Sequence record: PP129558
DNA from: Escherichia phage vB_EcoM_01
DNA: 64,000 nt
Direction: 5' to 3' (one strand)
In this document: positions 208-18,337 of the stretch, one piece after another
Layout of the letters: every line of letters starts with the position of its first letter
How positions within the stretch are numbered: position 1 is the stretch's first letter
Translations under genes and position numbers: made by a program
Notes under the pieces: model-generated
What the model was told of the DNA's origin: nothing
Database searches by the model: none
What the model saw: the letters and a program-made list of their open reading frames with translations, nothing else

Positions 208-446
208 GAAAATTTTTAATAGGTATGTTCTGTACATATCCTGATAATAAAGTCAGTTCTACGAAAGTCTGGAACGCTGTAGGCATGTCGGTTATGACAG
301 GCATGTTTATCTTTTTAGGAATAGAAAAAGAAATTCCTGAATGGATGGGTTGGGCTTTTGTTTTCATGATAACTCCTTCTCGCCTCATGAAAAATCTTAT
401 TGATTTACGCTGGGGCAGATCACAATCTACCAAAGAGGATGACTAA
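204..446 (+). CDS. small hydrophobic protein
   Basis: 80 aa ORF, hydrophobic core, stop/start junction with flanking plus-strand genes; competing antisense ORF 113-433 judged less likely. Confidence 0.45.
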   Translation: MRKFLIGMFCTYPDNKVSSTKVWNAVGMSVMTGMFIFLGIEKEIPEWMGWAFVFMITPSRLMKNLIDLRWGRSQSTKEDD

Positions 447-1933
447 TGGACGAATATGGTTTGACAGATGCGGGATTTGTAATCCCGACTTTTGACGATG
501 TTTTAAACAACTACATGACAGCAGTAAAAAACACATTTGGTGCAGATGCAGCCACTTCGGAAGATACTGTGATCGGACAACTGTTTAGAATAATTGCATA
601 CACAGATTACACATTGTGGGAAGGTATGCAAGGTGTTTATAATACTCAAACACTGGATGGTGCAGAAGGTATTTATCTTGATGAAATCTTTTCTAAACGC
701 GGTTTCTATCGAGCAGGTGCAGCAGCAAGTACAGGTTATGCATATGTTAAGAGTAATAACAAAGCAGCTTGGACTTATGAGCTAGGCACGGATATTTACT
801 TCAACTCTGATAGTGATATGAACTACTATGTTAGCACACCAACTATGTTGAATGCTAAGATTGCAGCTTATCAAATCTCTCGTGCTAATGCAACTGCTAC
901 AGGTGTTCCAAATATTACTTTTTATGCACAAAGTGCGGTCGATGGAGGACTAAACAGTAAAACACTTGCACCTGGTTCTTCTACATTTATAACCGATCTT
1001 GAAACTTTTATCAAGGCAAATTTAACAGAAGCTGATCGTAGTCTTGTATTTTCTGATTCAGGTAACTTATCAATTGGTTTTACTTCTTTAACCAGTGATA
1101 CTCCAGTGGGTCTGGTAACTCCTATTAAATTTTATGCTAGTGTTCCGGTTGGAACCAAATGGAGTGAGATTCCGGTAGTTGCAGCAGAGAAAGGATACAA
1201 TCCTGTTGGTGTGGAGTCTATTACAGGGATATCTTCTACCTTTACAGGTTATCTTGACAGTGGTAACTTCTATTCATTTTCTCCTGGTCGAGATGTTGAG
1301 ACAGACGCAGAATTCCGCTCTCGTTTCAATGACAACGTTGATGAAGCTAACGCAGGGACACGAGCAGCTATTGTGAAAGCTCTGTTGCTTACAGATGGTG
1401 TTACTAAGGTGAAGATTTATGATAACCCTACGTTACATGATCAAGAACACGCTCCAGCTATGACTTTCCAGACTATAGTTTATGGTGGCAGTGCAGAAGA
1501 AATTGCAAATGTTATCTATAAAACCAAACCAATTAACACTTTGACACACGGAACAACTAACATAACAGTTACAACAGAAGATGGAGGACAAGAAATTATT
1601 CGCTTCTCCCCTGGTGCTTCTGCTATGTATTCTGTAAAACTTGTTTATCAAACTGTCAACGGAACAACTTTAAGTGGAACAGAAAAACAAAACATCGTAG
1701 AAGCTTTACAAAACCTGCAAGCTTACTTTGAGTTAGGTTCTTCAGTAACAAACGATCAAATCAAAGGTGTTATTTATGCAGCACTTGCTTTTGGACGCTT
1801 GACTTCTCTTCGTGTTTATGTTAAACTTAATACTGAGGATGACAGTAAATATACAGAGAATAATATAGTTCCTGCTTATAATGTTGTCCCTTCTTTTGAC
1901 CTTGATAACATTTCTTACGAGTATGGAGTGTAA
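446..1933 (+). CDS. virion structural protein (tail/baseplate module), function unresolved
   Basis: 495 aa ORF, AAGAGG RBS upstream, first of a co-oriented tightly packed structural block. Confidence 0.7.
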   Translation: MDEYGLTDAGFVIPTFDDVLNNYMTAVKNTFGADAATSEDTVIGQLFRIIAYTDYTLWEGMQGVYNTQTLDGAEGIYLDEIFSKRGFYRAGAAASTGYAYVKSNNKAAWTYELGTDIYFNSDSDMNYYVSTPTMLNAKIAAYQISRANATATGVPNITFYAQSAVDGGLNSKTLAPGSSTFITDLETFIKANLTEADRSLVFSDSGNLSIGFTSLTSDTPVGLVTPIKFYASVPVGTKWSEIPVVAAEKGYNPVGVESITGISSTFTGYLDSGNFYSFSPGRDVETDAEFRSRFNDNVDEANAGTRAAIVKALLLTDGVTKVKIYDNPTLHDQEHAPAMTFQTIVYGGSAEEIANVIYKTKPINTLTHGTTNITVTTEDGGQEIIRFSPGASAMYSVKLVYQTVNGTTLSGTEKQNIVEALQNLQAYFELGSSVTNDQIKGVIYAALAFGRLTSLRVYVKLNTEDDSKYTENNIVPAYNVVPSFDLDNISYEYGV

Positions 1934-1935
1934 AA

Positions 1936-2565
1936 ATGGCAGTGAGTGTTGACCATGTAACAACTTGGGCCAGTATCAATGAAGACGTTAAAAACCTTCT
2001 GATTGAAGATTTTAAATCTTCTCCTAACATTGTCAAGCTCCTCTACATCGTATCCAGTGAAAAGCAAAAGATAGATCAGGCAATGATCTATCTTGCTAAA
2101 CACCGCTTGATCTCCACAGCCACAGGCAAATACCTAGATATCTTAGGAGAAGAAATGGGGATCGAACGTAATGGCTCTGATGATGAAGAGTATAGAACAA
2201 TATTAAAAATCAGGGCTTACCGCGTAGCCTCATCGGGGACTCGTGGTGACATAATTGATATCTTCGCCCGTTTCACAGGAACAGAGCGTGAAACGCTTAA
2301 TACTTACGTAGGTTTGAATAAAACCTTTGATGTGTTTTTCTACAACCTGTGTCTTCAATCTGATCAAGCTTTAGAGCAGTTGCTAAGTGTTTTCCCTATT
2401 ATTAGTAGCTACCGTCTTGGAGCAAAAGCAGGATCAGCTTTTGGTTTTAGTTCTTATTATGCTACCAAACCACCTCATGGTATTGGTGGTTTAGGTTCCC
2501 TGTACATGGAATCTACTGGGGATGAAACAGGACGCATGTGTACGCTTCTCAAGCAAATAGATTAA
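1936..2565 (+). CDS. structural module protein
   Basis: 209 aa ORF, 2-nt spacing from upstream gene, GGAG RBS. Confidence 0.65.
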   Translation: MAVSVDHVTTWASINEDVKNLLIEDFKSSPNIVKLLYIVSSEKQKIDQAMIYLAKHRLISTATGKYLDILGEEMGIERNGSDDEEYRTILKIRAYRVASSGTRGDIIDIFARFTGTERETLNTYVGLNKTFDVFFYNLCLQSDQALEQLLSVFPIISSYRLGAKAGSAFGFSSYYATKPPHGIGGLGSLYMESTGDETGRMCTLLKQID

Positions 2566-2574
2566 GGAGTTTAA

Positions 2575-3636
2575 ATGGCGAAGCCAATATATTATCCTGA
2601 CTGGGCTACACAAACTGTAACGCTCCCAGGAACTTTAAACACAAACAAAATTAGACCTAAAGAAACCATCCGCACAGTTGGTATGGATTATGGTCAAATC
2701 ATGACTTGCGAAGAAATGAACTGGATTCTTAATAATATCGGTTTATGGATTCGTTATTTGGTGGATGACTTTATTCCAACTTTACCTAATACTTACTTGC
2801 CTTTAGTTGGAACTAAGATTACAATGGCAGGTGATGCTACTGGTGAGGCTACTTGGAACGGTGATAAAGAAGTTATTTTATCTGTCCAAGTTCAAGATAA
2901 CAGTCATAATCACTTATCGGCAAACATTACAGATGCTACTAGTTCAATAGTAACACCAAATGTGTTGGTAAAACGTGATGCAGGTGGTGCTATTTATGGT
3001 GGTGATGTTTATGTTAATGGTACTTCCACAACAGATCCTGCAACCCTGTTTTTCAAGAACTTTGCAGGACAGACTAATGGTGAGATTTCTGCCGAATACC
3101 AAAGTGGAGGTCAGCTTTATATTTATCGTAGAAATCCTAGTACAGGTAGTGTAGCCGCAGGTGTTCGTTTATATGATGCAGGTTATGTTCTAATAGACAA
3201 TCCAAGATCAAACAATGGACAAGACACTTCTAACGGAAATGCCTTGGTTCGCTTAGATTATCTGAATTCTCGTTTGACTTCTCTTCAGAACACATTGCAA
3301 ACGAATATTAATACTGTTCAAAACAACCTGAATAGTGTTAACAACAACCTCTCTTCCCGTATAAACAATGTAGAAAGTAATCATCAAAGTCAGATTACAA
3401 ATAACTACAACTATGCTAATGGAACCTTTGTAAGAGATATTCGTTACACTAGCCAAGGTGTGTATTATCCGCCAGGGAACGAAGTTTCTTGGACTTATAT
3501 CTGTTCTTCTGGTTATGTTCTTTCTGGTATTATTGTTCAGGAAACAGGTCGTAGTTCTGCGGATAACATTGGTGGGGTTTACTTCAAACGCCTCCAGCGC
3601 AACGTTAACGGAAACTGGTACGATATTGGAGGCTAA
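2575..3636 (+). CDS. tail fibre-like protein
   Basis: 353 aa; Asn/Thr/Gly-rich with a coiled repeat segment (NTLQTNINTVQNNLNSVNNNLSSRINNVESN); AAGGAG RBS. Confidence 0.6.
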   Translation: MAKPIYYPDWATQTVTLPGTLNTNKIRPKETIRTVGMDYGQIMTCEEMNWILNNIGLWIRYLVDDFIPTLPNTYLPLVGTKITMAGDATGEATWNGDKEVILSVQVQDNSHNHLSANITDATSSIVTPNVLVKRDAGGAIYGGDVYVNGTSTTDPATLFFKNFAGQTNGEISAEYQSGGQLYIYRRNPSTGSVAAGVRLYDAGYVLIDNPRSNNGQDTSNGNALVRLDYLNSRLTSLQNTLQTNINTVQNNLNSVNNNLSSRINNVESNHQSQITNNYNYANGTFVRDIRYTSQGVYYPPGNEVSWTYICSSGYVLSGIIVQETGRSSADNIGGVYFKRLQRNVNGNWYDIGG

Positions 3637-4182
3637 ATGATATTTACAAATTTTAAAAAGTATATTCCTGAAGATCCTGAACTAAAAGAATTGGTAGAAG
3701 CAGAGAACATTCTTTTCCTTCGTTGTGATCAAGGTTACGATTGGTATGATTTACGTAGCACAGAATTCAATAACGATAAAATGAAAGTCGTTTTTGATGA
3801 TCAAAATCGTATTGTGTTTTGGAATACTGATCCTACACTACTTTGCCCTGAAGATCTTTCTATAGCACAAGTAGACTTTAATATAGATACTTTTGAGGAT
3901 ATTAGGAACAAGGTTTTGGATTTAGAAACCTTAACTCTTAAGGATAAAGAGTATTCCCGTGAAGAGTTGATGACGCAAGCTAGTGCAAAGATTCGCTCTT
4001 TACAAGAGACAGCGGTAGCACTTATAACACCTTTACAATATGCTAAAGATTTAGAAATGGCTACTGAAGATGAATTAGCTTATCTTAAAAATCTTCAAGT
4101 TTATGTGGTTAAACTAAACCGTGTTCCGCTTCAAAAAAACTATCCTTACACTATAGATTGGCCTACATTACCGACGGAATAA
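3637..4182 (+). CDS. hypothetical protein (possible fibre assembly/chaperone)
   Basis: 181 aa ORF directly following the fibre gene. Confidence 0.5.
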   Translation: MIFTNFKKYIPEDPELKELVEAENILFLRCDQGYDWYDLRSTEFNNDKMKVVFDDQNRIVFWNTDPTLLCPEDLSIAQVDFNIDTFEDIRNKVLDLETLTLKDKEYSREELMTQASAKIRSLQETAVALITPLQYAKDLEMATEDELAYLKNLQVYVVKLNRVPLQKNYPYTIDWPTLPTE

Positions 4183-4191
4183 GGGATCACT

Positions 4192-4527
4192 ATGGAATTT
4201 CAAGAAGCATGGGGACTTGCAAAGGATGCAATCATCCCTTTAATCGGAGTCATCTGGTTCTTTTTCAAACAAAAAATGGATAAATTCGGCTCTGATCTTG
4301 AGGAAATGGAGGAGAAAAGTCGAGAGCTAGAGAAGAAGTTGGTCTTTGTTGAATCAACTTATGCAACTAAAGCCGAACTTACCCAGATGCTAAATCAAAT
4401 TAACTCTACATTAATGGCAAATAATAACACTCTTGAGCAAAAGATTGAAAAGATTATGGACCTCAAGAATGCTACTATTCAAATGATGCTAGATGACATA
4501 GTTAAACGTACACAGAATAAGGGGTAA
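4192..4527 (+). CDS. small protein with N-terminal TM helix and coiled coil
   Basis: 111 aa, hydrophobic IIPLIGVIWFFF then charged coiled-coil-like region. Confidence 0.5.
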   Translation: MEFQEAWGLAKDAIIPLIGVIWFFFKQKMDKFGSDLEEMEEKSRELEKKLVFVESTYATKAELTQMLNQINSTLMANNNTLEQKIEKIMDLKNATIQMMLDDIVKRTQNKG

Positions 4528-4530
4528 TTA

Positions 4531-7500
4531 ATGGCAACATTCCCAACATATCCAGCAACGTCTCTTGAACAGGGCGTAGATCTGGTTATTTTCTCGTCTA
4601 ACCAACTCCATGATGTTATTAATGGAAGTGCTACAGAGAGTATTGAAACAGAATCAGGGTTGATACCAACCCTGAGAAAAGCCCTTGTTGACAACTTTTT
4701 CTTTAAAAGTCCATTAGATTGGGCGCAAGGCACAAACGAAACAGTTTTTAACCAACTTCGTTATTTCCAGAACGGAGTGTTGAGTGGTTATTACTATGCG
4801 CCTAATGCTACGCTGGTAAACCCAATTCCTATGCAAGGGACTCCAGTAGGAGATAACAACTGGGTATTGTGGGGACTGAAGACAGAACAACTAGCAACAG
4901 AAGTCACCCCTTGGGTATATTCTGGTGCAACTGGTTATGAAACAGTAATCAGTCCTCCCTACATCTTTGATAGTGCTATTGTTACAATCAATGGTGTTAT
5001 TCAGGTTCTGGGAGAAGCTTTCCGCATAGAAGATAGTAAAATCATTTTATCTGAACCTTTGGGACATGATCCTGCAACAGGACTGCCAAACAAGCTTTTT
5101 GCCTATATTGGTAAAATCGTAGCTTCCGCAGATACAGATCCTAACTTAGAAAACCGTCTTGTCAGTTTAGAAACAAAAACTGAAGAACTGACAGAAAGCA
5201 TGGATAAAGTACCTTTACAAACTATTGCTCGTAAATACGGTTTGTTGGATGATGAAGTAGCTTACGCAACAGCGGGTCAATCATTAACAGGGATTAAAGC
5301 TCTGTATGATCCGGTAGCACAATCTTCCTACACATTGCCTCCTAACATCACAGGGACTTTAACATCTTTGTCTGTTTCTGGAGTAATGACTTATTCTGGC
5401 GGATCTGTAGACCTTTCTGCATTAGCTGTTGAACGTGGACAGTTTGTTCATTTGCCTACAAGCTTTGGTAATAACGTAACTCTGACAGCTAAAAATCAGA
5501 CGATTGGGCGTGGCGCTGGTCGCTATCGTTGGGCGGGGAGTTTACCAAAAAGTATTTTAGCTTCTGATACATTGGAAACAAGTGGTGGATTAGGTCCAAA
5601 TGCATGGGTTCTAACTAATACAGAAGGACTGTTAACCCCTCGTGGTGGAACATACAACGATTTATTCGATGTTGTCTACTTGTCAGAATTTGCTAACAAT
5701 ACAACTACCTATGCCACACCAGAAGCAGCTTTCCAGGCGGCACTGTTAGCAGCAAAAGCTTCGAAAAGTAAGATTCTCGACGCTTACGGTTGTGATATGA
5801 CTTTCACGACAAGCTCTTTTGATATTCAAGATATCACTTTGCGTGGGGGTGTGTTCCGTGGTCAACGCGACTATCGTGTGCAAAATGCTACAGTAGAAGG
5901 CACAACTTTCCGTAACTCTCGTGTTATGTATTGGGGTGGTGCTGTGCGCATGTTCGATTGTTTGTGGGACGGTGCTCCTCGCGCAGGTCAAGTTGGTAGC
6001 TTGGTATTCCAAGGCAACCCAATATCAGGTACTTTTGAAATTGATAATTGTACTTTTAAAAATGGGTTATATGGCATCCTTCAACAAGGAACAGGGGAAC
6101 CAGTAACACGTGGTGTCTTCCGTAACCTTACCTTCATGGACATGCAAGGTGATGCAATAGAACTGAACGTCATCAATAAACATTATGACGATGGTTGTGT
6201 GATTGAGAATATTTACCTGTCTAATATCGATGGGACTAACGCTCCTATTCCTCTGTCCAACTGGGGTATCGGTATCGGTGTAGCTGGTAAAGGACCATAT
6301 GGTTACGGAATCCCTGATGATCAATATTGCAAGAATATTACAATTCGTAACGTTTTTGCAAAACGTTGTCGTCAGATTGTCCACGTAGAAGTTGGTCGTA
6401 ATATCTCTATCGAAAACATTCATGGCGATCCAGATCAAACCGTATCTGTTGGGACAGGTTTGGCAACAGGCGCAGTTGTAATGTATGGAAGTAAAGATTT
6501 TACGATTGACGGTGTTTACGGAGAGCCTAAAACAGACGGTAGCACACTTGCAAGTAATATCCGTATGATTTATTTGGAGTGGGGAACTAACGCAGTTCTG
6601 GACGAAGAGGGTAATCCGGTAGTTCCGGCACAGGGTAGACCTTCAAACCCATGCTTTAACTATTCTGTTCGTAACATTCACACCAAAACTGGGCGTGTTT
6701 TTGCGGGAGTTTCCGCTGGGCCAGGTTATGAAAACAGAGTTAGCTTTGAAAATATTCGTTGCGCTGCATTGCAGTTGTTCGGTATAGCTTCTTGGCTTTC
6801 AATGTCTAACATCACCTGTAATATCTTCGATTGTGTTGGTCAACCTGAATCTGGTCCAGGGACATTTTATGATGGATTCTTCCGTAGAGAAAAATCTGTT
6901 CTTGAAATGGTTAACGTAAACTGTTACCCAGATGGCAAGACGATGGTTACTGGTCGTCCACAGTGGAGCCGTTGCCGTTACTCGGATATTCATCGTGTCA
7001 ACTGTAATGTTGAAGCTAATATGTATACCAATATCGCAGGTGGTATTGGAGCTATTGTAGGGACAACGGGCAAAGTTTATTACTTAGAGCCTAATCCTAG
7101 TCGAAACATTGATGGAATGCATTTCCCAACAGGGAAAGAGTTTGACAAAGGTGATATGATAGTCAAGGCGGATAATACGTTCTTCCTTGTAACAACAAGT
7201 GGGGCATATATTCCAGATATCCCAGCTTTCGGTATTCGAGCTACACAAGCAGGAGATACCTTCCTGACACAGAACTTGACTCCTAACGGGACAGCAACAA
7301 ATGCTTCTTGGTTGTATCATTACCCTCTGTCAGCAGGGACACGTATCCGTATTCCTGGTGCTGGCGTAGGTGGAGCAGATTTGGACACAGTTATTACTCG
7401 TGCACCTTATCAAGATAATGATACGTGGACTAACCCAGTTAAAATAGACATTGCAGATCCAATTGTAACGCCTACAAGTGCTGGAGTTAGAATTAAAACC

Positions 7501-7584
7501 ATACCTAATGATTCCAGTAATGTTTCTGTAGGTAATACTGCGGTTATTCGCCCAACGCCAGTAGTAGATGTGCCAACAACCTAA
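4531..7584 (+). CDS. tailspike/tail fibre with parallel beta-helix-like repeats (possible polysaccharide depolymerase)
   Basis: 1017 aa; recurring short motifs (FRNLTFMDMQG, FRNSRVMYWGG, ITIRNVFAKRC, VRNIHTKTG) typical of right-handed beta-helix; followed by a hairpin. Confidence 0.6.
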   Translation: MATFPTYPATSLEQGVDLVIFSSNQLHDVINGSATESIETESGLIPTLRKALVDNFFFKSPLDWAQGTNETVFNQLRYFQNGVLSGYYYAPNATLVNPIPMQGTPVGDNNWVLWGLKTEQLATEVTPWVYSGATGYETVISPPYIFDSAIVTINGVIQVLGEAFRIEDSKIILSEPLGHDPATGLPNKLFAYIGKIVASADTDPNLENRLVSLETKTEELTESMDKVPLQTIARKYGLLDDEVAYATAGQSLTGIKALYDPVAQSSYTLPPNITGTLTSLSVSGVMTYSGGSVDLSALAVERGQFVHLPTSFGNNVTLTAKNQTIGRGAGRYRWAGSLPKSILASDTLETSGGLGPNAWVLTNTEGLLTPRGGTYNDLFDVVYLSEFANNTTTYATPEAAFQAALLAAKASKSKILDAYGCDMTFTTSSFDIQDITLRGGVFRGQRDYRVQNATVEGTTFRNSRVMYWGGAVRMFDCLWDGAPRAGQVGSLVFQGNPISGTFEIDNCTFKNGLYGILQQGTGEPVTRGVFRNLTFMDMQGDAIELNVINKHYDDGCVIENIYLSNIDGTNAPIPLSNWGIGIGVAGKGPYGYGIPDDQYCKNITIRNVFAKRCRQIVHVEVGRNISIENIHGDPDQTVSVGTGLATGAVVMYGSKDFTIDGVYGEPKTDGSTLASNIRMIYLEWGTNAVLDEEGNPVVPAQGRPSNPCFNYSVRNIHTKTGRVFAGVSAGPGYENRVSFENIRCAALQLFGIASWLSMSNITCNIFDCVGQPESGPGTFYDGFFRREKSVLEMVNVNCYPDGKTMVTGRPQWSRCRYSDIHRVNCNVEANMYTNIAGGIGAIVGTTGKVYYLEPNPSRNIDGMHFPTGKEFDKGDMIVKADNTFFLVTTSGAYIPDIPAFGIRATQAGDTFLTQNLTPNGTATNASWLYHYPLSAGTRIRIPGAGVGGADLDTVITRAPYQDNDTWTNPVKIDIADPIVTPTSAGVRIKTIPNDSSNVSVGNTAVIRPTPVVDVPTT

Positions 7585-7590
7585 TGGAAT

Positions 7591-7612
7591 AGAGGGGGAA
7601 TCCCCCCTCTTC
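7591..7612 (+). terminator. stem-loop downstream of tailspike gene
   Basis: agaggggg-aat-cccccctct inverted repeat, weak T tract. Confidence 0.4.
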
Positions 7613-7646
7613 TTCCAATAGAATGGTCTAATGATAGGAGAGATAA

Positions 7647-9671
7647 ATGAATTTAACAAGACCTAATAGTGCGATAGCCGATCTGGTAGAAGCTACTTAT
7701 CGAAAACGTCGCAGCTTTGAGGCAGGTTTTACATTACGTAATTCCCGTGAAGTTTTGCTGTTAGCAGCAGAAGGGAATTATTACCAATGGAAAGGAACTT
7801 TTCCTAAAGTAGTTCCAGCAAACTCTACGCCAGCCACCACAGGTGGTATTTCTTCCCTTGCATGGCAAAGTGTTGGGACCGCTGATGATATAGCAATTAT
7901 CAATGCCAAGTTTACGGCAGTGCAACAACAGATCGATGATTTGTCAGAAGCAATACCTGAAGCTGGTAAATCGGCTTATCAGATCGCACTTGATAATGGT
8001 TTTGTTGGAACAGAAGCACAATGGCTTGCTTCTTTGAAAGGGGATACTGGTGCTCAACTTAATATTAAAGGATCATTAGCAAGCACTAGTGAACTACCAT
8101 CTACAGGTAACGTTGCAGGGGATGGTTATATCGTAGGTGATGTTATTTACGCTTGGGACGGTTCTGTTTGGAAACTTATTTCTTCTCTTGGACCAGAAGG
8201 GAAATCAGCTTACGAGGTATGGTTGGCAGATGGTAATACAGGATCTGTTTATGACTTTCTTGCCTCTATAAAAGGTGATAAAGGAGACGTTGGTCCTACA
8301 GGTCCACAGGGTGCACCTGGTGTCAACGCTAATGGTTTTGATTATCGTGGGGATTTGCCTTCTACAAGTAACTTACCACAACCTAACTCTGAAAACGTAA
8401 GCCAAGCTTATTCTATCAGTGGTAATCTTTATGTCTCCAATGGGACAGCTTGGGTCAACATGGGTAATATTGTTGGTCCTCAAGGTCCACAAGGTGAGGC
8501 AGGTAAAGACGGTCTAGATGGAACAGATGGAGATGAAGGGAAATCTGCATATCAAAGTTGGCTGGATGCTGGTAATGAAGGGACAGAAGTAGATTTTATT
8601 GCCTCGCTTAAAGGTCCAAAAGGAGACAAGGGAGAGCAAGGAGAACGAGGACCACAAGGCGAATTAGGTCCACAAGGACCAGTGGGTGCAACAGGATCAG
8701 GTTTAGAGATTATCGGGGTTCTGAACAGCGAAGCTGAACTTCCTCCGACTGGAGAAGTAGGTGACGCATATAAAATTAATAATGATTTGTATGTTTGGGT
8801 TCAAGATGCTACGGAATGGATGAATGTTGGTAGTCTTGGAGGAACATCAATTACAGCTAAAGGTCATGTTCCGAACAGTGAAGCTCTACCTGTTTACAAT
8901 AACTATGGTGATGCTTACTTAACTGAAGACACTAGTAATCTTTACATCTATACCTACGATCAAGACACCAATTCCGCATCTTTTGTTGACATGGGAAGTA
9001 TTAAAGGCGACAAAGGTGAAAAAGGGGATAAAGGAGATAAGGGTGATCCTGGAACAAACGGAACCAACGGTACTGATGGGACCAACGGTAAGGACGGCGC
9101 ACAGTGGTTTGTAGCAACAACTAATCCAGTCACAGGAGACGGTGTTATCAATGATTACGCCTTCAATACTACTACTGGAGCAGTATTTAAGAAAACAGAT
9201 TCTTCTACGTGGACACTTATAGGAACTCTTCCTAGTATACCAGAAGCCCCTCAAGACGGCTTGACGTATGGTCGTTCTGATGGAAACTGGATCGAAATAT
9301 CAGGATCAGATCCTACGGAAGCTATAACACCAACTAAAGTTACAGCAGGTTTCATGGAACTTGAAACAACTACTGCCAACTCTGGAGCATCTTGGACTCC
9401 TTCTGGAACTTCCAATATGTATGTTGTTACAGTAACTGACGCTCTGACAGTTGGAGCATGGCCTGGTGTCACTGGCTCTACAAAACCTAAAGCGTTTTCA
9501 GCAATGATTTATTTGATTCAAGATACAACGGGACACACGGTTACACTAGATGCGTCTTATGGAGCACTAAATGATACAGAAATAGCAACTACTGCTAACG
9601 CAGTAACAATTTTGCAATTAACGTATCCTGGTGTGGGTGATATCGTGGACATGGTTGTTGTAACACGATAA
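7647..9671 (+). CDS. collagen-like repeat tail fibre protein
   Basis: 674 aa; several Gly-X-Y runs (GPQGPQGEAGKDGLDGTDGDEG; GPKGDKGEQGERGPQGELGPQGPVGATG; GDKGEKGDKGDKGDPGTNGTNGTDGTNGKDG) and three copies of GKSAY(Q/E)..L(D/A)..G..F(L/I)AS(L/I)KG. Confidence 0.8.
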   Translation: MNLTRPNSAIADLVEATYRKRRSFEAGFTLRNSREVLLLAAEGNYYQWKGTFPKVVPANSTPATTGGISSLAWQSVGTADDIAIINAKFTAVQQQIDDLSEAIPEAGKSAYQIALDNGFVGTEAQWLASLKGDTGAQLNIKGSLASTSELPSTGNVAGDGYIVGDVIYAWDGSVWKLISSLGPEGKSAYEVWLADGNTGSVYDFLASIKGDKGDVGPTGPQGAPGVNANGFDYRGDLPSTSNLPQPNSENVSQAYSISGNLYVSNGTAWVNMGNIVGPQGPQGEAGKDGLDGTDGDEGKSAYQSWLDAGNEGTEVDFIASLKGPKGDKGEQGERGPQGELGPQGPVGATGSGLEIIGVLNSEAELPPTGEVGDAYKINNDLYVWVQDATEWMNVGSLGGTSITAKGHVPNSEALPVYNNYGDAYLTEDTSNLYIYTYDQDTNSASFVDMGSIKGDKGEKGDKGDKGDPGTNGTNGTDGTNGKDGAQWFVATTNPVTGDGVINDYAFNTTTGAVFKKTDSSTWTLIGTLPSIPEAPQDGLTYGRSDGNWIEISGSDPTEAITPTKVTAGFMELETTTANSGASWTPSGTSNMYVVTVTDALTVGAWPGVTGSTKPKAFSAMIYLIQDTTGHTVTLDASYGALNDTEIATTANAVTILQLTYPGVGDIVDMVVVTR

Positions 9672-9673
9672 CA

Positions 9674-9700
9674 GAAGCCCCGAAAGGGGCTTTCTTTTTA
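9674..9700 (+). terminator. rho-independent terminator
   Basis: gaagcccc-gaaa-ggggcttt hairpin followed by ctttttat. Confidence 0.65.
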
Positions 9701-9712
9701 TGGAGGGTTTAA

Positions 9713-12385
9713 ATGTTTCCAATTCCAATATTTACTATTATGACCAGCACTGGTGTCGTTCCTCTGCCAGCAGGTATTGTTAAAAAAGTAATCACTTTAG
9801 ATTACCCAGATAATGCTGGCAATTCTAATAGCAGTTTAGCAATTTTGCTTAATGATGGTAGATTGTTTACTCAAGGCGCAAACCTTTTTGGTGAGATTGC
9901 AGATGGAACTCGTAGTGCACGATTCAATAATTTCCACTTAGCTTCTACTGTAGTAGCGGATGTGTTTACCGCAGATCGTTGTTTTGTTATTAAAACTAAC
10001 AGTGGAGGATGGCAATATTCAGGATTGACAGCAGGATTGGTAGGATCTATAGCAGCAGGTGGTACGGACGCATGTGTAACTACTTGGACCAGCTTTCCAT
10101 CTGTAATAACAGGGACTATCTCTTTAGCTAATCTTAAAGAGGTTAAGGGAGGATATAACAATACTCTCTGGTTAATGAATAGTGGTGTTCTTTATGGATC
10201 AGGTCAAAACACAGTAGGTAGTTTAGGTGCAAGTACTACTAACGAAGTTTCTACTCCTCGTCAGATAACAAGTGCAGCAGTTGCTTTTGATGCAGGTTAC
10301 AACCAATGTTCTTATGTCAACAATGTGGGAACCTTGCGTGTTTGTGGAGCCAGTAAAGGTTTAGCAGGTAATAATAACACAACAACAGCTTTTGTCAATG
10401 CCAAGATATCCGCTACTGAAACAGTGTATGTCAAAGATTACATCAATACAGTTTCCCAGACAATAGTTGTAGGAGATACCTCCGGTGGCACGGGTACAGT
10501 AAACTACTTATATGTTAGATCTAATACAGAAACAACCTACACTAAACTGGATACCTTTGCAGCAGGTTTCTCAACATGGAAGTTTCCACCAAGCCGCCAC
10601 TCTTTTTTCGTTGGGATCAATAATTCCTTGTGGGCTATTGGTAAGAACTACACTGCAAACTTAGGTTTGGGGTATGATTCTGCGAGCGGAGATCCACTCC
10701 AAGTGGGAAAACCAGTTAAACCTGAAGGAGTGGGTTCTTGGGATATAAACAAGCTCACAAGCGTTCATACGCTGAATATGGATGTTACTAACCAATTAGG
10801 TTATCAAGGAACCTTTTTCGTTTATAATGGAGATATGTATTATTCCGGTATTTGGAAAGATGGGAAAGCCTCGTATCTGTTCAATAGTGGTCTAAACTAT
10901 AATAAATTCACACCAATAGCAAGCTCCGTGATTACGGGCGATATTCTGGCAACTGGCTTAACTACAGATTCTTTAGGAATTTGTATTGTAGGTGGAACTA
11001 AACAGTTGACACATTCTGTTAGCCCAGAAGGAGGTAAACTTTTCAATATTAAATACACTTCTTCTGCCCCTGCAAACATGACAATATCATCTACTGGTTT
11101 AATGACTTTCCATGCAGAAGGTGGTTTTGATGCAGGTATGACAGCCTTAAACGCTGAAGGAACAACTTTATCAGATACCTCTGGAGGATATGCTTCAACA
11201 TTGAGCGTTTACACTCCTAGCTTATCTGCGATGGATGTAGGAACAACACAAACAATGGTAGCAGAAATAACGCCAACAGGAGCAGCAAGCTTACCTGGTA
11301 TGGTTGTTGAGTATACAACTACAGATCCTAATGTTGCTACAGTAGATCCTACAACTGGTGTAATAACTGGTGTTGGTGATGGTGGTTGTAGAATTGGTTG
11401 CACAGCTACGTATCAAGGTGTTGTTACCGCTTCTGATAGTTCTTATTTAACGGTGAATGCTGTTGCGGGAAAGGAGTTAGCTCCATCTCCGAGTAGTAGC
11501 TTAACGGTTCTAAACGGATATTTCAACCACTCGGCAGATGGGGCAATTACGTTCCCAATTTTATCGGGTACTGTCACACCAGCTAACTTTGTAGTTAAGG
11601 TGGATGACGTTGTAATACCTTCAAATAAAGTAATATTTAGAAATAAAGCTTTCTCTACAGTGGATAGCTATCCAGCAGGAGAATATAGACTGGCTATTGA
11701 ATTTGCAAGTGCTTCAGTAGTTAATAGTGTGGAAGTGTCTATGGAAGCAAACCCAAGTCTTTTAGAACTTTGGGGCGGTAATAGAATCAGTTATTCTACA
11801 AGCCCAGCCTCACAATTCTTAAAAGGTTGTGCTAACTTAAGACGAATAACTTCTGATTGTTTTAGTAACACATCTTACACCGGAACATCTATAAGTGGTA
11901 TCTTCTCTGGCTGTACAAGTTTGACAGCTATCCCTGAAGGTTTATTCAGTGATACTTTATTTCCTTCAATGACAACAATGTCAAGCACGTTTGAAGGTTG
12001 TACATCTTTAACATCTATTCCTTCAGATTTATTTAAGAATCTATCAAAAGTTACAAGATATTCTTACACCTTTAAAGATTGCACGTCTCTTGCAGAAGTT
12101 CCAGCAGGAATGTTTGATAATATTCCAACGAAAGTGACCTCTTTAACAGCTACATTCCAAGGTTGTTTAGCACTTACAGATTTTAATAAAATCTTTAATG
12201 ACAACCCAGGGTTAACTGTTTGTGGTAAACGTGGAGCATTATCTTCTTTCTTTAGTGGATGCACAAATCTTACAGGAACAGGAACAACATTAACAAATAC
12301 ATTAGGCGGAGTAGCTAATAGTTACCTATTCAGGTATTGCACAAAACTTTCTGATTATAACAACATTCCTTCCGGTTATAAATAA
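9713..12385 (+). CDS. large tail fibre/adhesin-like protein with C-terminal leucine-rich repeats
   Basis: 890 aa; repeated F(S/E/K/Q)GCTSLT.IP..LF units in the C-terminal third (BspA-type LRR-like); Ser/Thr/Gly-rich N-terminal two thirds. Confidence 0.7.
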   Translation: MFPIPIFTIMTSTGVVPLPAGIVKKVITLDYPDNAGNSNSSLAILLNDGRLFTQGANLFGEIADGTRSARFNNFHLASTVVADVFTADRCFVIKTNSGGWQYSGLTAGLVGSIAAGGTDACVTTWTSFPSVITGTISLANLKEVKGGYNNTLWLMNSGVLYGSGQNTVGSLGASTTNEVSTPRQITSAAVAFDAGYNQCSYVNNVGTLRVCGASKGLAGNNNTTTAFVNAKISATETVYVKDYINTVSQTIVVGDTSGGTGTVNYLYVRSNTETTYTKLDTFAAGFSTWKFPPSRHSFFVGINNSLWAIGKNYTANLGLGYDSASGDPLQVGKPVKPEGVGSWDINKLTSVHTLNMDVTNQLGYQGTFFVYNGDMYYSGIWKDGKASYLFNSGLNYNKFTPIASSVITGDILATGLTTDSLGICIVGGTKQLTHSVSPEGGKLFNIKYTSSAPANMTISSTGLMTFHAEGGFDAGMTALNAEGTTLSDTSGGYASTLSVYTPSLSAMDVGTTQTMVAEITPTGAASLPGMVVEYTTTDPNVATVDPTTGVITGVGDGGCRIGCTATYQGVVTASDSSYLTVNAVAGKELAPSPSSSLTVLNGYFNHSADGAITFPILSGTVTPANFVVKVDDVVIPSNKVIFRNKAFSTVDSYPAGEYRLAIEFASASVVNSVEVSMEANPSLLELWGGNRISYSTSPASQFLKGCANLRRITSDCFSNTSYTGTSISGIFSGCTSLTAIPEGLFSDTLFPSMTTMSSTFEGCTSLTSIPSDLFKNLSKVTRYSYTFKDCTSLAEVPAGMFDNIPTKVTSLTATFQGCLALTDFNKIFNDNPGLTVCGKRGALSSFFSGCTNLTGTGTTLTNTLGGVANSYLFRYCTKLSDYNNIPSGYK

Positions 12386-12390
12386 GAAAA

Positions 12391-12417
12391 GGAGCCATTT
12401 GGCTCCTTTCTTTTATA
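12391..12417. terminator. bidirectional terminator between convergent genes
   Basis: ggagcc-attt-ggctcc hairpin flanked by A-run upstream and T-run downstream. Confidence 0.6.
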
Positions 12418-15006: not shown

Positions 15007-18000
15007 TCAATGACAGGATGCCCAGGAATTACCCACGTCATATCCGGCAGTAAGCTGAACGTTAAGATTGTAAAATTCTCCAGCCTTAGTAACAGCTAAA
15101 GCAGCAAGCTCACCTGCCCGACTATAAGCTGTAAACCATCCACCTTTAGGAGATTCATGAATGTTAGCCCAAATTTGCCCTGTCTCTTTTTCCTTATTAT
15201 GCTTCCATTCTTCAACTTTAGCAAGGCATTCTTTATCAATTTTCTTTTGTTCTTCAGGATCGTCTACTTTCTTCCAACCTAATGATTCAGGTGAAAACCA
15301 TTTAAATTCTACAAGGTTACGAGAAACTTCAAGCTGGGCTTCATCGTGATATGCAATCATTTGTTGCACGAAGTCTTTATTCTTCCAGTCATCTTTAAAG
15401 AAGTCAACACTTAGCCCTTCTTCTTCTATCATGTCGTCATAAATAACCATTGCACGTTTAGCGCAGATAACCCCACCACTTTGGAACAGAGAGTTAAGAA
15501 TCGCGTGAGCAGAACGAGTAGGAACCTTACGACCGTCAATACCCAAAACATACTGTTTACCAGTCTTAACCCAGAAATCGTTTAAACGTTCTTTAAGACG
15601 TGCCAGTGGGAATGCAGCTTCCCAGAAAGCATCAAACACCAATTGACCTGTAAACTTATCGCTACCAATTGTTTTAGCAACCTTGTCGGCTTGTGCACCA
15701 TAGGTAATACCATACTTAACAGATTTAGCAGGACTACGTTCAAATTTACGTCCAATAGTTTCAGTGATACGTTTTGCCATCATTGTGTGAACATCGTTAG
15801 GTTTCTCTAACAACAGAGCGTTACAATATTCATGTGGCTCCGGCTCGTACCGCCAACAGTAGTGTGATTCAATTTTTGCTTCCAAAGAGTCGAAGTCGTA
15901 GCCGATCTGGAAGTATTTAGGCNNGTCTCTTATACACATCTGACGCTGCCGACGACAGACGTGGTGTGTAGATCTCGGTGGTCGCCGTATCATTAAAAAN
16001 NNNNNNNNNNNNNNNNNNNNNNNNNNNNNNNNNNNNNNNNNNNNNNNNNNNNNNNNNNNNNNNNNNNNNNNNNNNNNNNNNNNNNNNNNNNNNNNNNNNN
16101 NNNNNNNNNNNNNNNNNNNNNNNNNNNNNNNNNNNNNNNNNNNNNNNNNNNNNNNNNNNNNNNNNNNNNNNNNNNNNNNNNNNNNNNNNNNNNNNNNNNN
16201 NNNNNNNNNNNNNNNNNNNNNNNNNNNNNNNNNNNNNNNNNNNNNNNNNNNNNNNNNNNNNNNNNNNNNNNNNNNNNNNNNNNNNNNNNNNNNNNNNNNN
16301 NNNNNNNNNNNNNNNNNNNNNNNNNNNNNNNNNNNNNNNNNNNNNNNNNNNNNNNNNNNNNNNNNNNNNNNNNNNNNNNNNNNNNNNNNNNNNNNNNNNN
16401 NNNNNNNNNNNNNNNNNNNNNNNNNNNNNNNNNNNNNNNNNNNNNNNNNNNNNNNNNNNNNNNNNNNNNNNNNNNNNNNNNNNNNNNNNNNNNNNNNNNN
16501 NNNNNNNNNNNATCATTGTGTGAACATCGTTAGGTTTCTCTAACAACAGAGCGTTACAATATTCATGTGGCTCCGGCTCGTACCGCCAACAGTAGTGTGA
16601 TTCAATTTTTGCTTCCAAAGAGTCGAAGTCGTAGCCGATCTGGAAGTATTTAGGAACCTCTACACCAAACAAGTTACGCATCTCCCATCCAAACAAAGAT
16701 GTGACACGAGGAATGTTAGCTACAGACCTATGCTTCATACGAGAGGTTGCAGCATCACATGTAGCTGCTGGGGTAGGAATACGACCATCCGCCCTTACTG
16801 CGGCTAAGAAACCTTTATCGTATTCTTGATCTTCTTCATCTTCTTCCCAATCAGCACCGCCACCTAAAATAGAGTTCCTACGATGCTTATACGTTAAGTA
16901 TTCTACAATCTGTGTAGCATAAGGGAATTTCTCACCCAAAGCTTGCAGGTTAGGACAGATTTCTTTTTCCTGACCTTTGGTAAAACATGGGTTAGTCAAT
17001 ACTTTAAGACCGCGACCTTTACCTTTTGCTATACGCTCTTGAATCTTCCTTTCCAAGGTTTCCGGTGTGCACTCCAGATGATCACAACGGTCCTGACAAA
17101 AATTAGAAGATAAAGTTTGCTCAACGTAAGCTCGAATACCTTTCTGAAGTTCTTCCTCGCTCTTTTTAATCTTGGTGCCAGATTTAAGAGTCAAGTCTTT
17201 ATCTTTATATTCAGACGGTACCCAACCTAATCCTACAAGCCAGTTTTTAATATGGGTTGTATCGTTCAATGTTGCAGGGATGTGAGGATCACATAAAGGC
17301 TCATCTGCTGCAACTGGCAGTTTCCACTCTTTCCCCAACATAACTAACCACCAATCTCCATCCCTCTCTTCCAAATGACCATCATGTTTCTTAGCAAAAT
17401 TGATCATATGGTTAGTTGGCTCTAAGTTCTTTTTAATTTGCAACTTAGGTGGAATAAAAGCCTTAAGATAGCCTTTTGTTGCTGGTTTAGGTGGCAAAAT
17501 AGGCTCAACGAGTAAACGAAGACGCTCCATTTCTGCATCCAAAAAAGCAAGGTTCTCTTCTGCTTGCTTCATGTTAAAAGCAAATCCACGGTGTTCCTGG
17601 CGTGTAATAATGTCTGCTACACGTTGTTCAAGTTCAAATGGACCTTCCCATTTATCATAATCACCCCACTCTTCCATAAGGTAATTATATACGCTTGTAT
17701 TAGCTTTGTTGTCATAGATACAGTAATAAAGCATATCCGCAGCAAAAGTCTTAAATCGATCTTCTTCTGGAATCTCTTTACGGAAATCTATTTTTACATC
17801 ACCACCTGCTTTTCGAGAAAGTGCTGCCAAGCTATGTCCTGATTTGCCCTCAATCTTTCGATCTGGGTTTAACACTTTACTCAAAATCAAGGAGTCAATA
17901 AGTTTTACCTTATTTTTGCCCCACGTATTATATTTAACACTGTAATCTAATCCATAAAACAGTTTTGTAGCCAACCAGTCGTAGTTGATACCGTTGTGAG

Positions 18001-18337
18001 CCACAGCCATTTCAACCAGATATTCAGGCTTGTCTTCAAAATAACCTTCATGATTAATAAAGTCTGGGAAATCTTTTAGTTGAAAATGTGTGTAATCTTG
18101 CGCCACATACTCTTTAAGAACATATGTGTATTTACCATCTGACTCTTCATAAGGACGCCCATCAAAGATGTATTTAGGGCCATCGTGGAAAGCTACTATT
18201 TCTCCTGTTTCATGGTTCTCTAAGACAATACAGTGCATTTGAAATGTGTCTTTGAGACGATAAGGACTAGCTAAATAATCAATAGTGTCATTATTCAACA
18301 ATCCGTTTGCTTCAATATCCCATGTAAACTTACTCAC
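15007..18337 (-). CDS. family A (Pol I-like) DNA polymerase with 3'-5' exonuclease domain; gene interrupted by assembly artifact
   Basis: N terminus FTWDIEANGL (exo motif); C-terminal part RSPAKSVKYGITYGAQADKVAKTIG resembles family A motif B; the ORF is split by adapter plus N gap at 15922-16511 with 144 bp duplicated on both sides. Confidence 0.8.
15922..15999. other. sequencing adapter contamination (Tn5 mosaic end + index + flow-cell sequence), not biological
   Basis: tctcttatacacatctgacgctgccgacga...gtgtagatctcggtggtcgccgtatcatt is a Nextera-type adapter read-through. Confidence 0.9.
16000..16511. other. scaffold gap (N-run) with duplicated flanks
   Basis: 512 n; 15779-15922 is repeated at 16511-16654. 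Confidence 0.95.

Follow-up and report, generated by a model that had tools for sequence, protein, structure and literature searches.

Two terminal tail-fibre genes of an Escherichia phage: a collagen-like fibre protein and a multi-domain tail protein with an exchangeable leucine-rich repeat end

Phapecoctaviruses are among the Escherichia coli phages with the broadest host ranges and are entering therapeutic and biocontrol cocktails (PMC10844046), and the division of labour among fibres of their type is an open question in the field (PMC8594841, PMC13450770). Two neighbouring genes in a window of 64,000 nucleotides (nt) from Escherichia phage vB_EcoM_01 (record PP129558; one strand, 5' to 3') raise this question in a compact form. 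An initial annotation, made from the letters of the window, had placed there open reading frames (ORFs) for proteins of 674 amino acids (aa; 7647-9671, + strand) and 890 aa (9713-12385, + strand), and had read both as unusual tail fibres, likely to determine host range and to be recombination hot spots. Both ORFs are as it described them. What are the two proteins built of, which parts differ between closely related phages, and are these the parts that decide which host is recognised?

Judged by its sequence, the source phage is a Phapecoctavirus (Stephanstirmvirinae; an ESCO5/phAPEC8-like myovirus), a genus of ~150-kb myoviruses that are kin of phi92 and rV5. Across all of its 4.7 kb, the region has 98% nucleotide identity with Escherichia phages AV126, ESCO5, REC, Mt1B1_P17 and others, and in 65 phage records at least 80% of it is covered. 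Both genes are already known: they appear in dozens of GenBank records as 'tail fiber protein' (674 aa) and 'tail protein' (890 aa), and the papers on the phiWec phages discuss them as TfpM2 (the 674-aa protein, which is of the phi92 gp151 type) and TfpM1 (the 890-aa protein). In the literature searched, we found no description of the domains of the 890-aa protein as read here (a propeller, a pair of immunoglobulin (Ig)-like domains and a capped leucine-rich repeat (LRR) head), nor of the cassette with two alleles in which it ends.

The exchangeable end of the 890-aa protein

Comparison of the window with phage ESCO13 delimits the variable part sharply. The two genomes are colinear at ~97% identity over positions 209-11463 and again from 12407 on, with no similarity across 11464-12406 (+ strand). 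This segment holds a linker, a beta-sandwich, the LRR region, the stop codon and most of a terminator hairpin. Its upstream breakpoint (11463/11464) falls at residue 584, just before the linker (residues 585-589), which is modelled with a predicted local distance difference test score (pLDDT) below 50 by AlphaFold2 (AF2), and its downstream breakpoint (12406/12407) lies inside the hairpin. Identity falls to 90% over the last 460 nt ahead of the upstream breakpoint. The end of the second Ig-like domain (…CRIGCTATYQG.V.A.DSSYL.VNAV), which forms the upstream edge of the cassette, is common to all alleles and is thus likely to serve as the upstream homology arm.

The ESCO13-type protein (P0010; 891 aa, the 891-aa form of TfpM1) is 97-98% identical to the 890-aa protein over residues 1-~585 and has the same flanks, whereas its last ~307 aa ('VIVMDYDLTQE...GNGWYR...KYYD') bear no relation to the LRR cassette and match no Pfam family. 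The two alleles are almost equally frequent: among 64 records with a propeller at least 95% identical, ~32 carry the LRR allele and ~31 the alternative, and the phage records overall include 35 with the former and 39 with the latter. At least four C-terminal types are found on the conserved residues 1-~585, since metagenomes add a canonical DUF285 end (P0021, 145 bits) and another unrelated one; they also hold Vequintavirinae-like relatives of 565-610 aa (P0027-P0037) with no C-terminal head at all. A conserved N-terminal part with unrelated C-terminal modules, joined at sharp breakpoints in near-identical genomes, identifies the end of the protein as an exchangeable module. Within the genus, the predicted recombination hot spot is confined to the last ~307 codons of this gene, where comparison across phages reveals domain swapping.

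The alternative module is also found in minor tail proteins of Kagunavirus, in the RcapMu tail protein, in cyanophage baseplate proteins and in a 939-aa protein of Justusliebigvirus, which supports a virion-exposed binding role for whatever occupies the slot. The LRR cassette itself found no match in a distant-mode blastn search of 5,426 complete E. coli genomes and so has not been drawn recently from E. coli prophages.

In the window, the cassette begins, after the linker, with the beta-sandwich (~residues 590-690; 11480..11782, + strand; strands at 598-686, pLDDT 85-92), and LRR relatives have a sandwich with the pattern 'DWGDG...H.Y...G.Y...I.G' at the matching position. The LRR region follows at residues 702-890 (11816..12382, + strand) and consists of seven F-x-x-C-x-x-L units of 26-32 aa, starting at 702, 730, 759, 786, 814, 846 and 872. 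The tandem CTSLT(S/A)IP..LF repeats pointed out at the start are indeed present, three of the seven units having the near-perfect form GCTSLT(A/S)IP..LF. The structure prediction that had been suggested as a check gives pLDDT 91-96 for this region, with short strands at 726-728, 755-757, 782-784 and 810-812, one per 27-29 aa, consistent with a solenoid. The region closes with a cap, C-T-K-L-S-D-Y-N-N-I-P-S-G-Y-K, and the wider pattern C-F-x-x-C-T-x-L-S-D-Y-x-x-I-P-x-x-W-K, which reads LFRYCTKLSDYNNIPSGYK in the window, is kept in nearly all aligned relatives.

Homology places this C-terminus in the LRR superfamily. As a single sequence, the C-terminal fragment matches a designed LRR protein (4psj, E 1.2e-5) in the PDB, and the family profile (A3) matches LRRTM 5a5c (6.4e-26), 4fs7 (1.5e-17), 4gt6 (2e-11) and TpLRR 6mlx (8.5e-5), as well as variable lymphocyte receptors and repebodies at about 1e-15. 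With E<=1e-3 as the limit, an exhaustive HMMER search with the C-terminal 303 aa reached 14,889 representative protein clusters, many of them giant multi-repeat proteins; 803 clusters still match at E<=1e-30. Sampled relatives pass the LRR_5, DUF285 and LRR_8 models and carry Mfa-like fimbrillin or BACON domains, and one of them (P0289) is a P2 gpI-type baseplate protein with the order Tail_P2_I, Big_2 and LRR_5. By these sequence matches, residues 702-890 are a genuine LRR domain that lies nearest to the BspA/LRR_5 and DUF285 types. The more specific designation 'BspA-type' is a nearest-family label rather than demonstrated membership, because the C-terminal fragment stays below the Pfam cut-offs both for LRR_5 (PF13306; 19.6 against 27.7 bits, E 9e-4, with no match at full length) and for DUF285 (PF03382; 16.5 against 25 bits, E 7e-3, and 13.5 bits at full length).

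Among cultured phages such a domain is rare, as had been surmised: a search of 50,697 phage records at E<=1e-3 gave only 59 matches, of which 35 belong to this phage group. The others come from temperate phages of Klebsiella, from a small number of jumbo phages, and from phages of Listeria, Synechococcus and Butyrivibrio; two proteins with the LRR type are annotated as 'tail protein' (in a Klebsiella phage) and 'putative tail protein' (in a Synechococcus phage). A literature search on BspA or LRR domains in phage tails returned nothing relevant.

A further arrangement of the same cassette was observed in an assembled 21-kb contig (L005 6001-7191; Logan SRR10359460). Here, fibre residues 1-74, which include the N-terminal anchor of the 674-aa protein, are fused in frame to residues ~572-890 of the 890-aa protein, giving a 396-aa product that corresponds to window positions ~7647-7868 joined to ~11426-12385. 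The flanks are normal, a deletion of ~3.5 kb is implied, and the cluster has 11 member sequences. It may be a genuine deletion variant, or the assembly may have produced it artificially; in the former case, the fibre anchor can display the LRR head without intermediary, and phages can lose the greater part of both proteins.

Domain order in the two proteins

Ahead of the cassette, two thirds of the 890-aa protein consist of domains that the initial annotation had missed when it called the protein a fibre. The gene (9713..12385, + strand) matches the tail protein family phrog_11922 with 1352 bits, and the AF2 model has a mean pLDDT of 87.7, with 528 residues at 90 or above. Residues 1-16 (9713..9760, + strand) form a conserved peptide, M(F/Y)PIP(I/L)F..., which is kept in all listed homologues and is a candidate attachment peptide. 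It is followed at ~residues 20-400 (9770..10912, + strand; pLDDT ~90) by a seven-bladed RCC1-like beta-propeller, identified both by its repeat (PF00415, 23.9 bits against a cut-off of 21.7) and by its fold: Foldseek places UVR8, RCC1 and HERC2 at the top of the PDB matches (E 2.5e-13, target-normalised template-modelling (TM) score 0.65-0.71). The whole-domain model PF25390 matches in part and under its cut-off (42 against 150 bits). Residues ~410-584 (10940..11464, + strand) are assigned by sequence score to two Big_2 Ig-like domains (PF02368, 36 bits against 22.8, in two stretches). The 890-aa protein is thus built as a string of domains that are typically monomeric, unlike a classical trimeric fibre.

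The Justusliebigvirus counterpart shows which of these parts form the core. In phage KMB37 (L003 12093-14912) the syntenic last gene encodes a 939-aa protein with the peptide MYPIPLF and the Big_2 pair and without the propeller; its middle of ~450 aa is annotated as 'carbohydrate esterase', and it ends in the alternative, non-LRR cassette at ~63% identity. The Ig pair of the 890-aa protein is 66% identical to that of the Justusliebigvirus protein. The conserved core is therefore the N-terminal peptide with the Ig pair, to which propeller and head are added. TfpM1 has been stated to be absent from Justusliebigvirus (PMC12695924); the 939-aa protein indicates that this 'absence' is a domain replacement and not the loss of a gene.

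The propeller invites a quite different interpretation, namely that the 890-aa protein is a non-structural factor, intracellular or secreted, that merely adjoins fibre genes. PHROG and UniProt label RCC1-like phage proteins as 'regulator of chromosome condensation' or 'DNA condensation protein', a terminator-like hairpin separates the gene from the fibre gene before it, and proteomic support for a place in the virion was not found in the literature search. However, the labels are names transferred from eukaryotic RCC1 and not the outcome of tests, and the gene lies on the same strand as the tail module, of which it is the last member. Its top PHROG is a tail protein and its further matches are structural proteins with Ig domains; RCC1-like propellers, which are widespread among phage proteins, also occur together with a T7 tail-fibre N-terminal domain (PollyC, Littlefix); the natural-looking fusion sets the C-terminal head on the anchor of the fibre; and the alternative cassette is a module of virion proteins elsewhere. 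We consider a non-structural factor very improbable, and we rejected an intracellular role of the propeller protein in 'chromosome condensation' in view of gene context and the fusion variant. A literature search on RCC1 propellers in phage tails yielded nothing relevant.

The 674-aa protein (7647..9671, + strand) matches the tail fibre family phrog_15437 over its full length (1335 bits), and its domains were mapped with Pfam, a PDB sequence search and an AF2 monomer model (mean pLDDT 69; globular parts 76-92). Residues 12-77 (7680..7877, + strand; pLDDT 83-90) are a Tail_spike_N anchor of the TSP1/Gp66 type: PF18668 matches with E 1.2e-19 (70.6 bits, cut-off 25), phmmer finds the solved tailspikes CBA120 TSP1/3/4, G7C gp63.1 and 9vvr (E 1.8e-13 to 1e-6), and Foldseek matches these same structures with probability 1.0, so that score and fold agree. 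A single long helix in the model at residues 81-102 (7887..7952, + strand) is presumed to be the coiled-coil neck of a trimer.

The shaft combines three kinds of module. The three GKSAY units that had been noticed follow the pattern GKSAY(Q/E)...(L/I)AS(L/I)KG, start at residues 107, 185 and 298, and are each predicted as two short helices; they lie at residues 107-132 (7965..8042, + strand; helices 110-116 and 123-130), 185-210 (8199..8276, + strand) and 298-323 (8538..8615, + strand). In an alignment of 33 homologues (A2), G107, S109, A110, Y111, W126, L127, S129, L130 and G132 of the first unit are invariant or nearly so. Five four-stranded beta knobs, absent from the initial annotation as were the anchor, the foldon-like hairpin and the tip domain, have the common motif LP..G..GD.Y......W.G..W and occupy residues 139-180 (8061..8186, + strand; pLDDT ~83, motif ..LP.tGn.GD.Y.V....y.WdG..W...), 232-274 (8340..8468, + strand), 354-396 and 403-451 (together 8706..8999, + strand) and 487-527 (9105..9227, + strand), all five being mapped with AF2 and a repeat alignment. 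Of the first knob, L150, P151, G158, D159, W170, D171 and W175 are invariant in the same alignment. A PDB sequence search with the GKSAY-plus-knob segment gave nothing at E<=10, and the only structural likeness of the shaft, a Foldseek match to the Pa223 capsid spike (9ny6_C; E 1.9e-3, TM 0.21), was rejected as too weak. The phi92 authors likewise remarked on a Pa223 capsid spike resemblance for gp151 (PMC13450770).

The third kind of module is the collagen-like run, of which there are four, uninterrupted: residues 210-227 (6 triplets; 8274..8327, + strand), 277-300 (8 triplets; 8475..8546, + strand), 323-352 (10 triplets; 8613..8702, + strand) and 454-486 (11 triplets; 9006..9104, + strand), the last containing the best Pfam Collagen stretch (454-485). 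One could hold the repeats of both proteins to be products of composition or chance, the Gly-X-Y runs being low complexity and the CTSLT period a coincidence, and it is true that all four runs have pLDDT below 50 in the monomer model and that the LRR region stays under the Pfam thresholds. However, the runs sum to 35 Gly-X-Y triplets, whereas 2,000 residue shuffles of the protein gave a mean of 4.5 and a maximum of 22, none reaching 35; the match to Pfam Collagen (PF01391) reaches 46.4 bits where 27.2 is the cut-off, which by sequence makes the runs members of that family; and glycine is invariant at every third position among the 33 homologues, already in the first run. Low monomer confidence is what an obligate trimer would lead one to expect, as the segment should need three chains. 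The confident model of the LRR region with its evenly spaced strands, its thousands of homologues and its profile matches to solved LRRs speak equally against coincidence. A chance origin, refuted by the shuffles, the homologue counts and the invariant glycines, is scarcely credible.

Beyond the last knob lies a foldon-like beta-hairpin, SIPEAPQDGLTYGRSDGNWIEIS, at residues 530-552 (9234..9302, + strand; AF2 strands 540-544 and 547-551), for which phmmer finds the fibritin-foldon chimera 1v1h and foldon-tagged spike constructs in the PDB, while the Fibritin_C match is weak; the hairpin resembles the foldon of T4 fibritin in sequence. The protein ends in a beta-sandwich of ~100 aa (residues 575-674; 9369..9668, + strand; pLDDT 80-92), which matches the phiTE 'putative tail fiber protein' 9cuy_g at its C-terminus (E 1.5e-11), has homologues that carry precomputed PF26209, and is presumed to be the receptor-binding end. 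Formation of a homotrimeric triple helix is presumed; the N-domain, which is of the trimeric TSP type, and the hairpin of foldon type lend it indirect support.

Neither novelty nor a hot spot is evident in this fibre. It has more than 3,915 homologues at E<=1e-3 among 8,000 candidates scored, mostly labelled tail fibre, and matches 77 PHROG families, again mostly so labelled; a collagen/GKSAY fibre is thus a very common design and not the unusual one that it had seemed. Within Phapecoctavirus the gene diverges as little as its neighbours (96-99% nt identity overall; 95.8-99.8% per 500 nt to ESCO5 and ESCO13), and a genus-level recombination hot spot was accordingly rejected for it. The number of modules differs among relatives, and more distantly related proteins of 814-1056 aa have additional knobs, repeated foldon-like hairpins and other tips. 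As a separate observation, phage vB_EcoM_EP57 (P0046) has a 512-aa form with an in-frame loss from GKSAY unit 3 to the last collagen run (~residues 318-483), from which shaft length is evidently changeable by recombination between repeats.

Proposed roles in adsorption

The data show how the two proteins are divided into domains, what these are homologous to, where the cassette begins and ends and how often each allele occurs, whereas we infer the trimer state, incorporation into the virion, mode of attachment, docking partners and binding of a bacterial surface ligand by the LRR. The resulting proposal, which we hold to be reasonably probable as a whole, is that the first gene encodes a homotrimeric side fibre and the second an accessory adhesin with a swappable specificity head. 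In the 674-aa fibre, the TSP1/Gp66-type N-domain would dock on another component of a branched fibre complex; a helical neck would lead into a shaft that alternates between two-helix GKSAY units, short triple helices of collagen type and small beta knobs; the foldon-like hairpin would fix the register of the trimer; and the ~100-aa beta-sandwich would form the distal tip. The 890-aa protein would be a bead-on-a-string accessory adhesin, tethered to the virion by its short N-terminal peptide, with the propeller and the two Ig-like domains as a spacer and weak glycan-binding part and the beta-sandwich with the LRR solenoid as a specific binding head. This head would be swapped through homologous recombination, bounded by the conserved end of the second Ig domain on one side and by the terminator/SSB (single-stranded DNA-binding protein) region downstream on the other, and such exchange would tune which feature of the host surface is recognised. 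The early suggestion of a host-range determinant is plausible for the 890-aa protein's C-terminus, since it is an exchanged cassette, and the LRR-end cassette probably helps to set host range.

Published work on the phiWec phages offers a first functional hint. TfpM1 occurs there in 890-aa or 891-aa forms, and its C-terminal variation has been noted (PMC12695924). On a yhaH mutant, infectivity is lost by phiWec188 and phiWec190, and on an flhD mutant by phiWec179, phiWec181 and phiWec186 (PMC12548472), and both groups require waaT (PMC12548472, PMC12695924). We find the LRR allele in phiWec190 and the alternative in phiWec179, so that cassette alleles co-vary with host-factor requirement in these phages, as a correlation only.

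This correlation bears on the main competing explanation, in which the 890-aa protein is a decoration of the virion or an environmental adhesin, whose weak adherence to mucus, biofilm matrix or debris would increase encounters and leave host choice unaffected. Ig-like domains of the Big_2 kind and propellers characteristically belong to phage surface proteins that are accessory and non-essential, and bacterial BspA-type LRR proteins are adhesins to host proteins; both facts count for a decoration. So do the dispensability of the propeller in the Justusliebigvirus counterpart, the many headless relatives of 565-610 aa, the deletion variant without most of the 890-aa protein, and the Mfa-like fimbrillin and BACON domains of the LRR relatives. 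A precise head cassette with two near-equal alleles in genomes that are 97-99% identical is, however, typical of diversifying selection on host recognition, and the recurrence of the alternative module in tail and baseplate proteins of other phages, together with the phiWec co-variation, argues in the same direction. We therefore judge a decoration unlikely, though it deserves more weight than any other alternative.

Several points weigh against the proposal of a side fibre and an accessory adhesin with a swappable head. Besides the sub-threshold LRR_5 and DUF285 scores, the top 50 Foldseek matches of the full 890-aa model in PDB and BFVD are propeller, Ig or full-length matches only, and the model of the 674-aa protein is a monomer with a predicted TM score of 0.24, so that the trimeric collagen state is predicted at most. 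The L005 contig, in which most of both genes is deleted, implies that neither full-length protein may be essential. The phiWec correlation is confounded, as another fibre, TfpL, distinguishes the two groups as well (PMC12695924), and YhaH, being annotated as an inner-membrane protein, is unlikely to act directly as a receptor. The literature search found no proteomic or structural placement of either protein in a virion, the text and supplements of the rV5 proteomics study do not mention the gp27 homologue, and in the 2026 cryo-electron microscopy study of phi92 no density could be matched with the gp151-type putative fibre (PMC13450770). The O177 'proteomics' paper reports in silico work alone, and a literature search on PVP-SE1 gp40 found nothing useful.

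A bolder form of the adhesin proposal can be framed, which we offer as speculation that is rather doubtful at present: the 890-aa protein would be a monomeric baseplate adhesin of non-fibrous build, held by a peptide of ~15 residues, its LRR head would be the receptor-binding domain for a proteinaceous or other non-lipopolysaccharide envelope feature, and the swap would switch between yhaH- and flhD-dependent secondary-receptor routes. If true, no LRR-type receptor-binding protein of a coliphage would have been characterised before this one, and the slot would offer a ready plug-in site for engineering the host range of broad-host-range Stephanstirmvirinae.

The current view of phage adsorption is left unchallenged by these results. 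The collagen-like fibre is an ordinary and widespread design, receptor-binding proteins of modular build whose tips can be exchanged are familiar, and the 890-aa protein is a case of such ordinary biology with a rarely noted LRR tip. Two handles are gained: a domain map of the terminal fibre genes, and a clean cassette of ~307 codons with two alleles, LRR or an unrelated module. They support allele-swap experiments and the prediction of host range from sequence in a therapeutically relevant group of phages.

Genomic setting and known systems

Both ORFs are the final two genes of the tail-fibre module and lie on the same strand as the baseplate, short fibre, chaperone and colanidase genes. In ESCO5 the order on one strand is baseplate wedge, baseplate protein, a 353-aa fibre with its chaperone, a small lipoprotein, a 1017-aa colanidase-like tailspike, and then the 674-aa protein (annotated 'tail fiber protein') and the 890-aa protein ('tail protein'). 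A convergent replication module, with SSB, nucleotidyltransferase and DNA polymerase, lies 3' of the 890-aa gene. In the window, the 1017-aa tailspike gene (4531..7584, + strand) matches phrog_6117, 'colanic acid degradation' (E 2e-282), the annotation also given in ESCO5; the identical product in L005 matches PF26208 (Phage_phiTE_241_N) and PF27800 (WcaM). This tailspike has an N-terminal extension of ~300 aa with a phiTE_241_N-type domain ahead of a mid-protein Tail_spike_N domain (residues 302-361, + strand; PF18668, 37.6 bits), and it may be the docking hub for the 674-aa fibre. Terminator-like hairpins with T-runs stand directly 3' of all three large fibre genes: one after the tailspike gene (7594-7606), one between the 674-aa and 890-aa genes (9674..9693, + strand), which could reduce expression of the 890-aa gene, and a bidirectional one (12387..12410) between the convergent tail and replication modules, where the phAPEC8 and ASO2A records have an annotated 'Terminator' at the same site.

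Two observations concern the wider window and its relatives. The family-A DNA polymerase is encoded on the - strand by two overlapping ORFs of 806 aa (15917-18337) and 328 aa (15007-15993), the latter matching PF00476 positions 139-345, and is a single 1110-aa product in ESCO5 and an 865-aa one in ESCO13. The segment 15860-16589 has no counterpart in either phage, and at 16-18 kb the GC content is as low as 0.30; the cause may be insertion, frameshift or a mobile element. In addition, near-identical Phapecoctavirus genomes have been deposited as 'Campylobacter phage B15' (MG065650.1), 'Pseudomonas phage PsgM04F' (OR584014.1) and 'Acinetobacter phage vB_AbaM_ABPW7' (OP562383.1), host labels that look doubtful in view of 92-99.7% identity to the region from this E. 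coli phage.

The closest known likeness of the 674-aa fibre is in Justusliebigvirus, where KMB37 WQN06860 ('tail assembly protein', gp151-type) is 59% identical over 664 aa, follows the colanidase in the same slot and is built in an identical order from Tail_spike_N, the GKSAY units, the collagen runs, the knobs, the foldon-like hairpin and the tip domain; it differs in its length of 641 aa and in having fewer collagen triplets. The N-domain (PF18668) at residues 12-77 is common to CBA120 TSP1, TSP3 and TSP4 and to G7C gp63.1. In these phages it belongs to tailspikes of branched receptor-binding complexes (PMC11414711). Unlike those tailspikes, the 674-aa protein bears on this anchor a fibre segmented by collagen, not a beta-helix depolymerase. 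Phage and bacterial collagen-like proteins (PF01391; the PHROG 'collagen like minor tail') likewise have Gly-X-Y runs that are poor in proline and rich in charged residues between globular modules; in comparison, the runs here are short (6-11 triplets) and broken by GKSAY and knob modules. The tip is homologous to the C-terminal ~110 residues of the 'putative tail fiber protein' of the Pectobacterium myophage phiTE (9CUY/9MJN, chain g), the remainder of which is unrelated. In the phiTE paper, the fibres were built from density at their N-terminal parts only, and the domain shared with the 674-aa tip lies outside.

For the 890-aa protein, the nearest known architectures are rV5 gp27 (1878 aa), PVP-SE1 gp40 (604 aa) and proteins of the BASEL phages, which close the fibre locus in Vequintavirinae and their kin and are homologous in the N-terminal peptide, in part of the propeller and in the Big_2 domains; BASEL labels the Vequintavirus relatives 'lateral tail fiber protein with intimin domain'. 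Their lengths and C-termini are different, and the LRR head is in none of those found. The head itself has the signature F..C.sLt.IP..lF....vT.....F and the 26-29-aa period of BspA-type LRR_5/DUF285 surface proteins (4fs7, 4gt6, 6mlx). In contrast to these bacterial surface proteins, it comprises about seven units, sits on a phage tail protein, and is set apart by a cap (C-T-x-L-S-D-Y-x-x-I-P-x-x-W/Y-K) that is common to some short metagenomic proteins.

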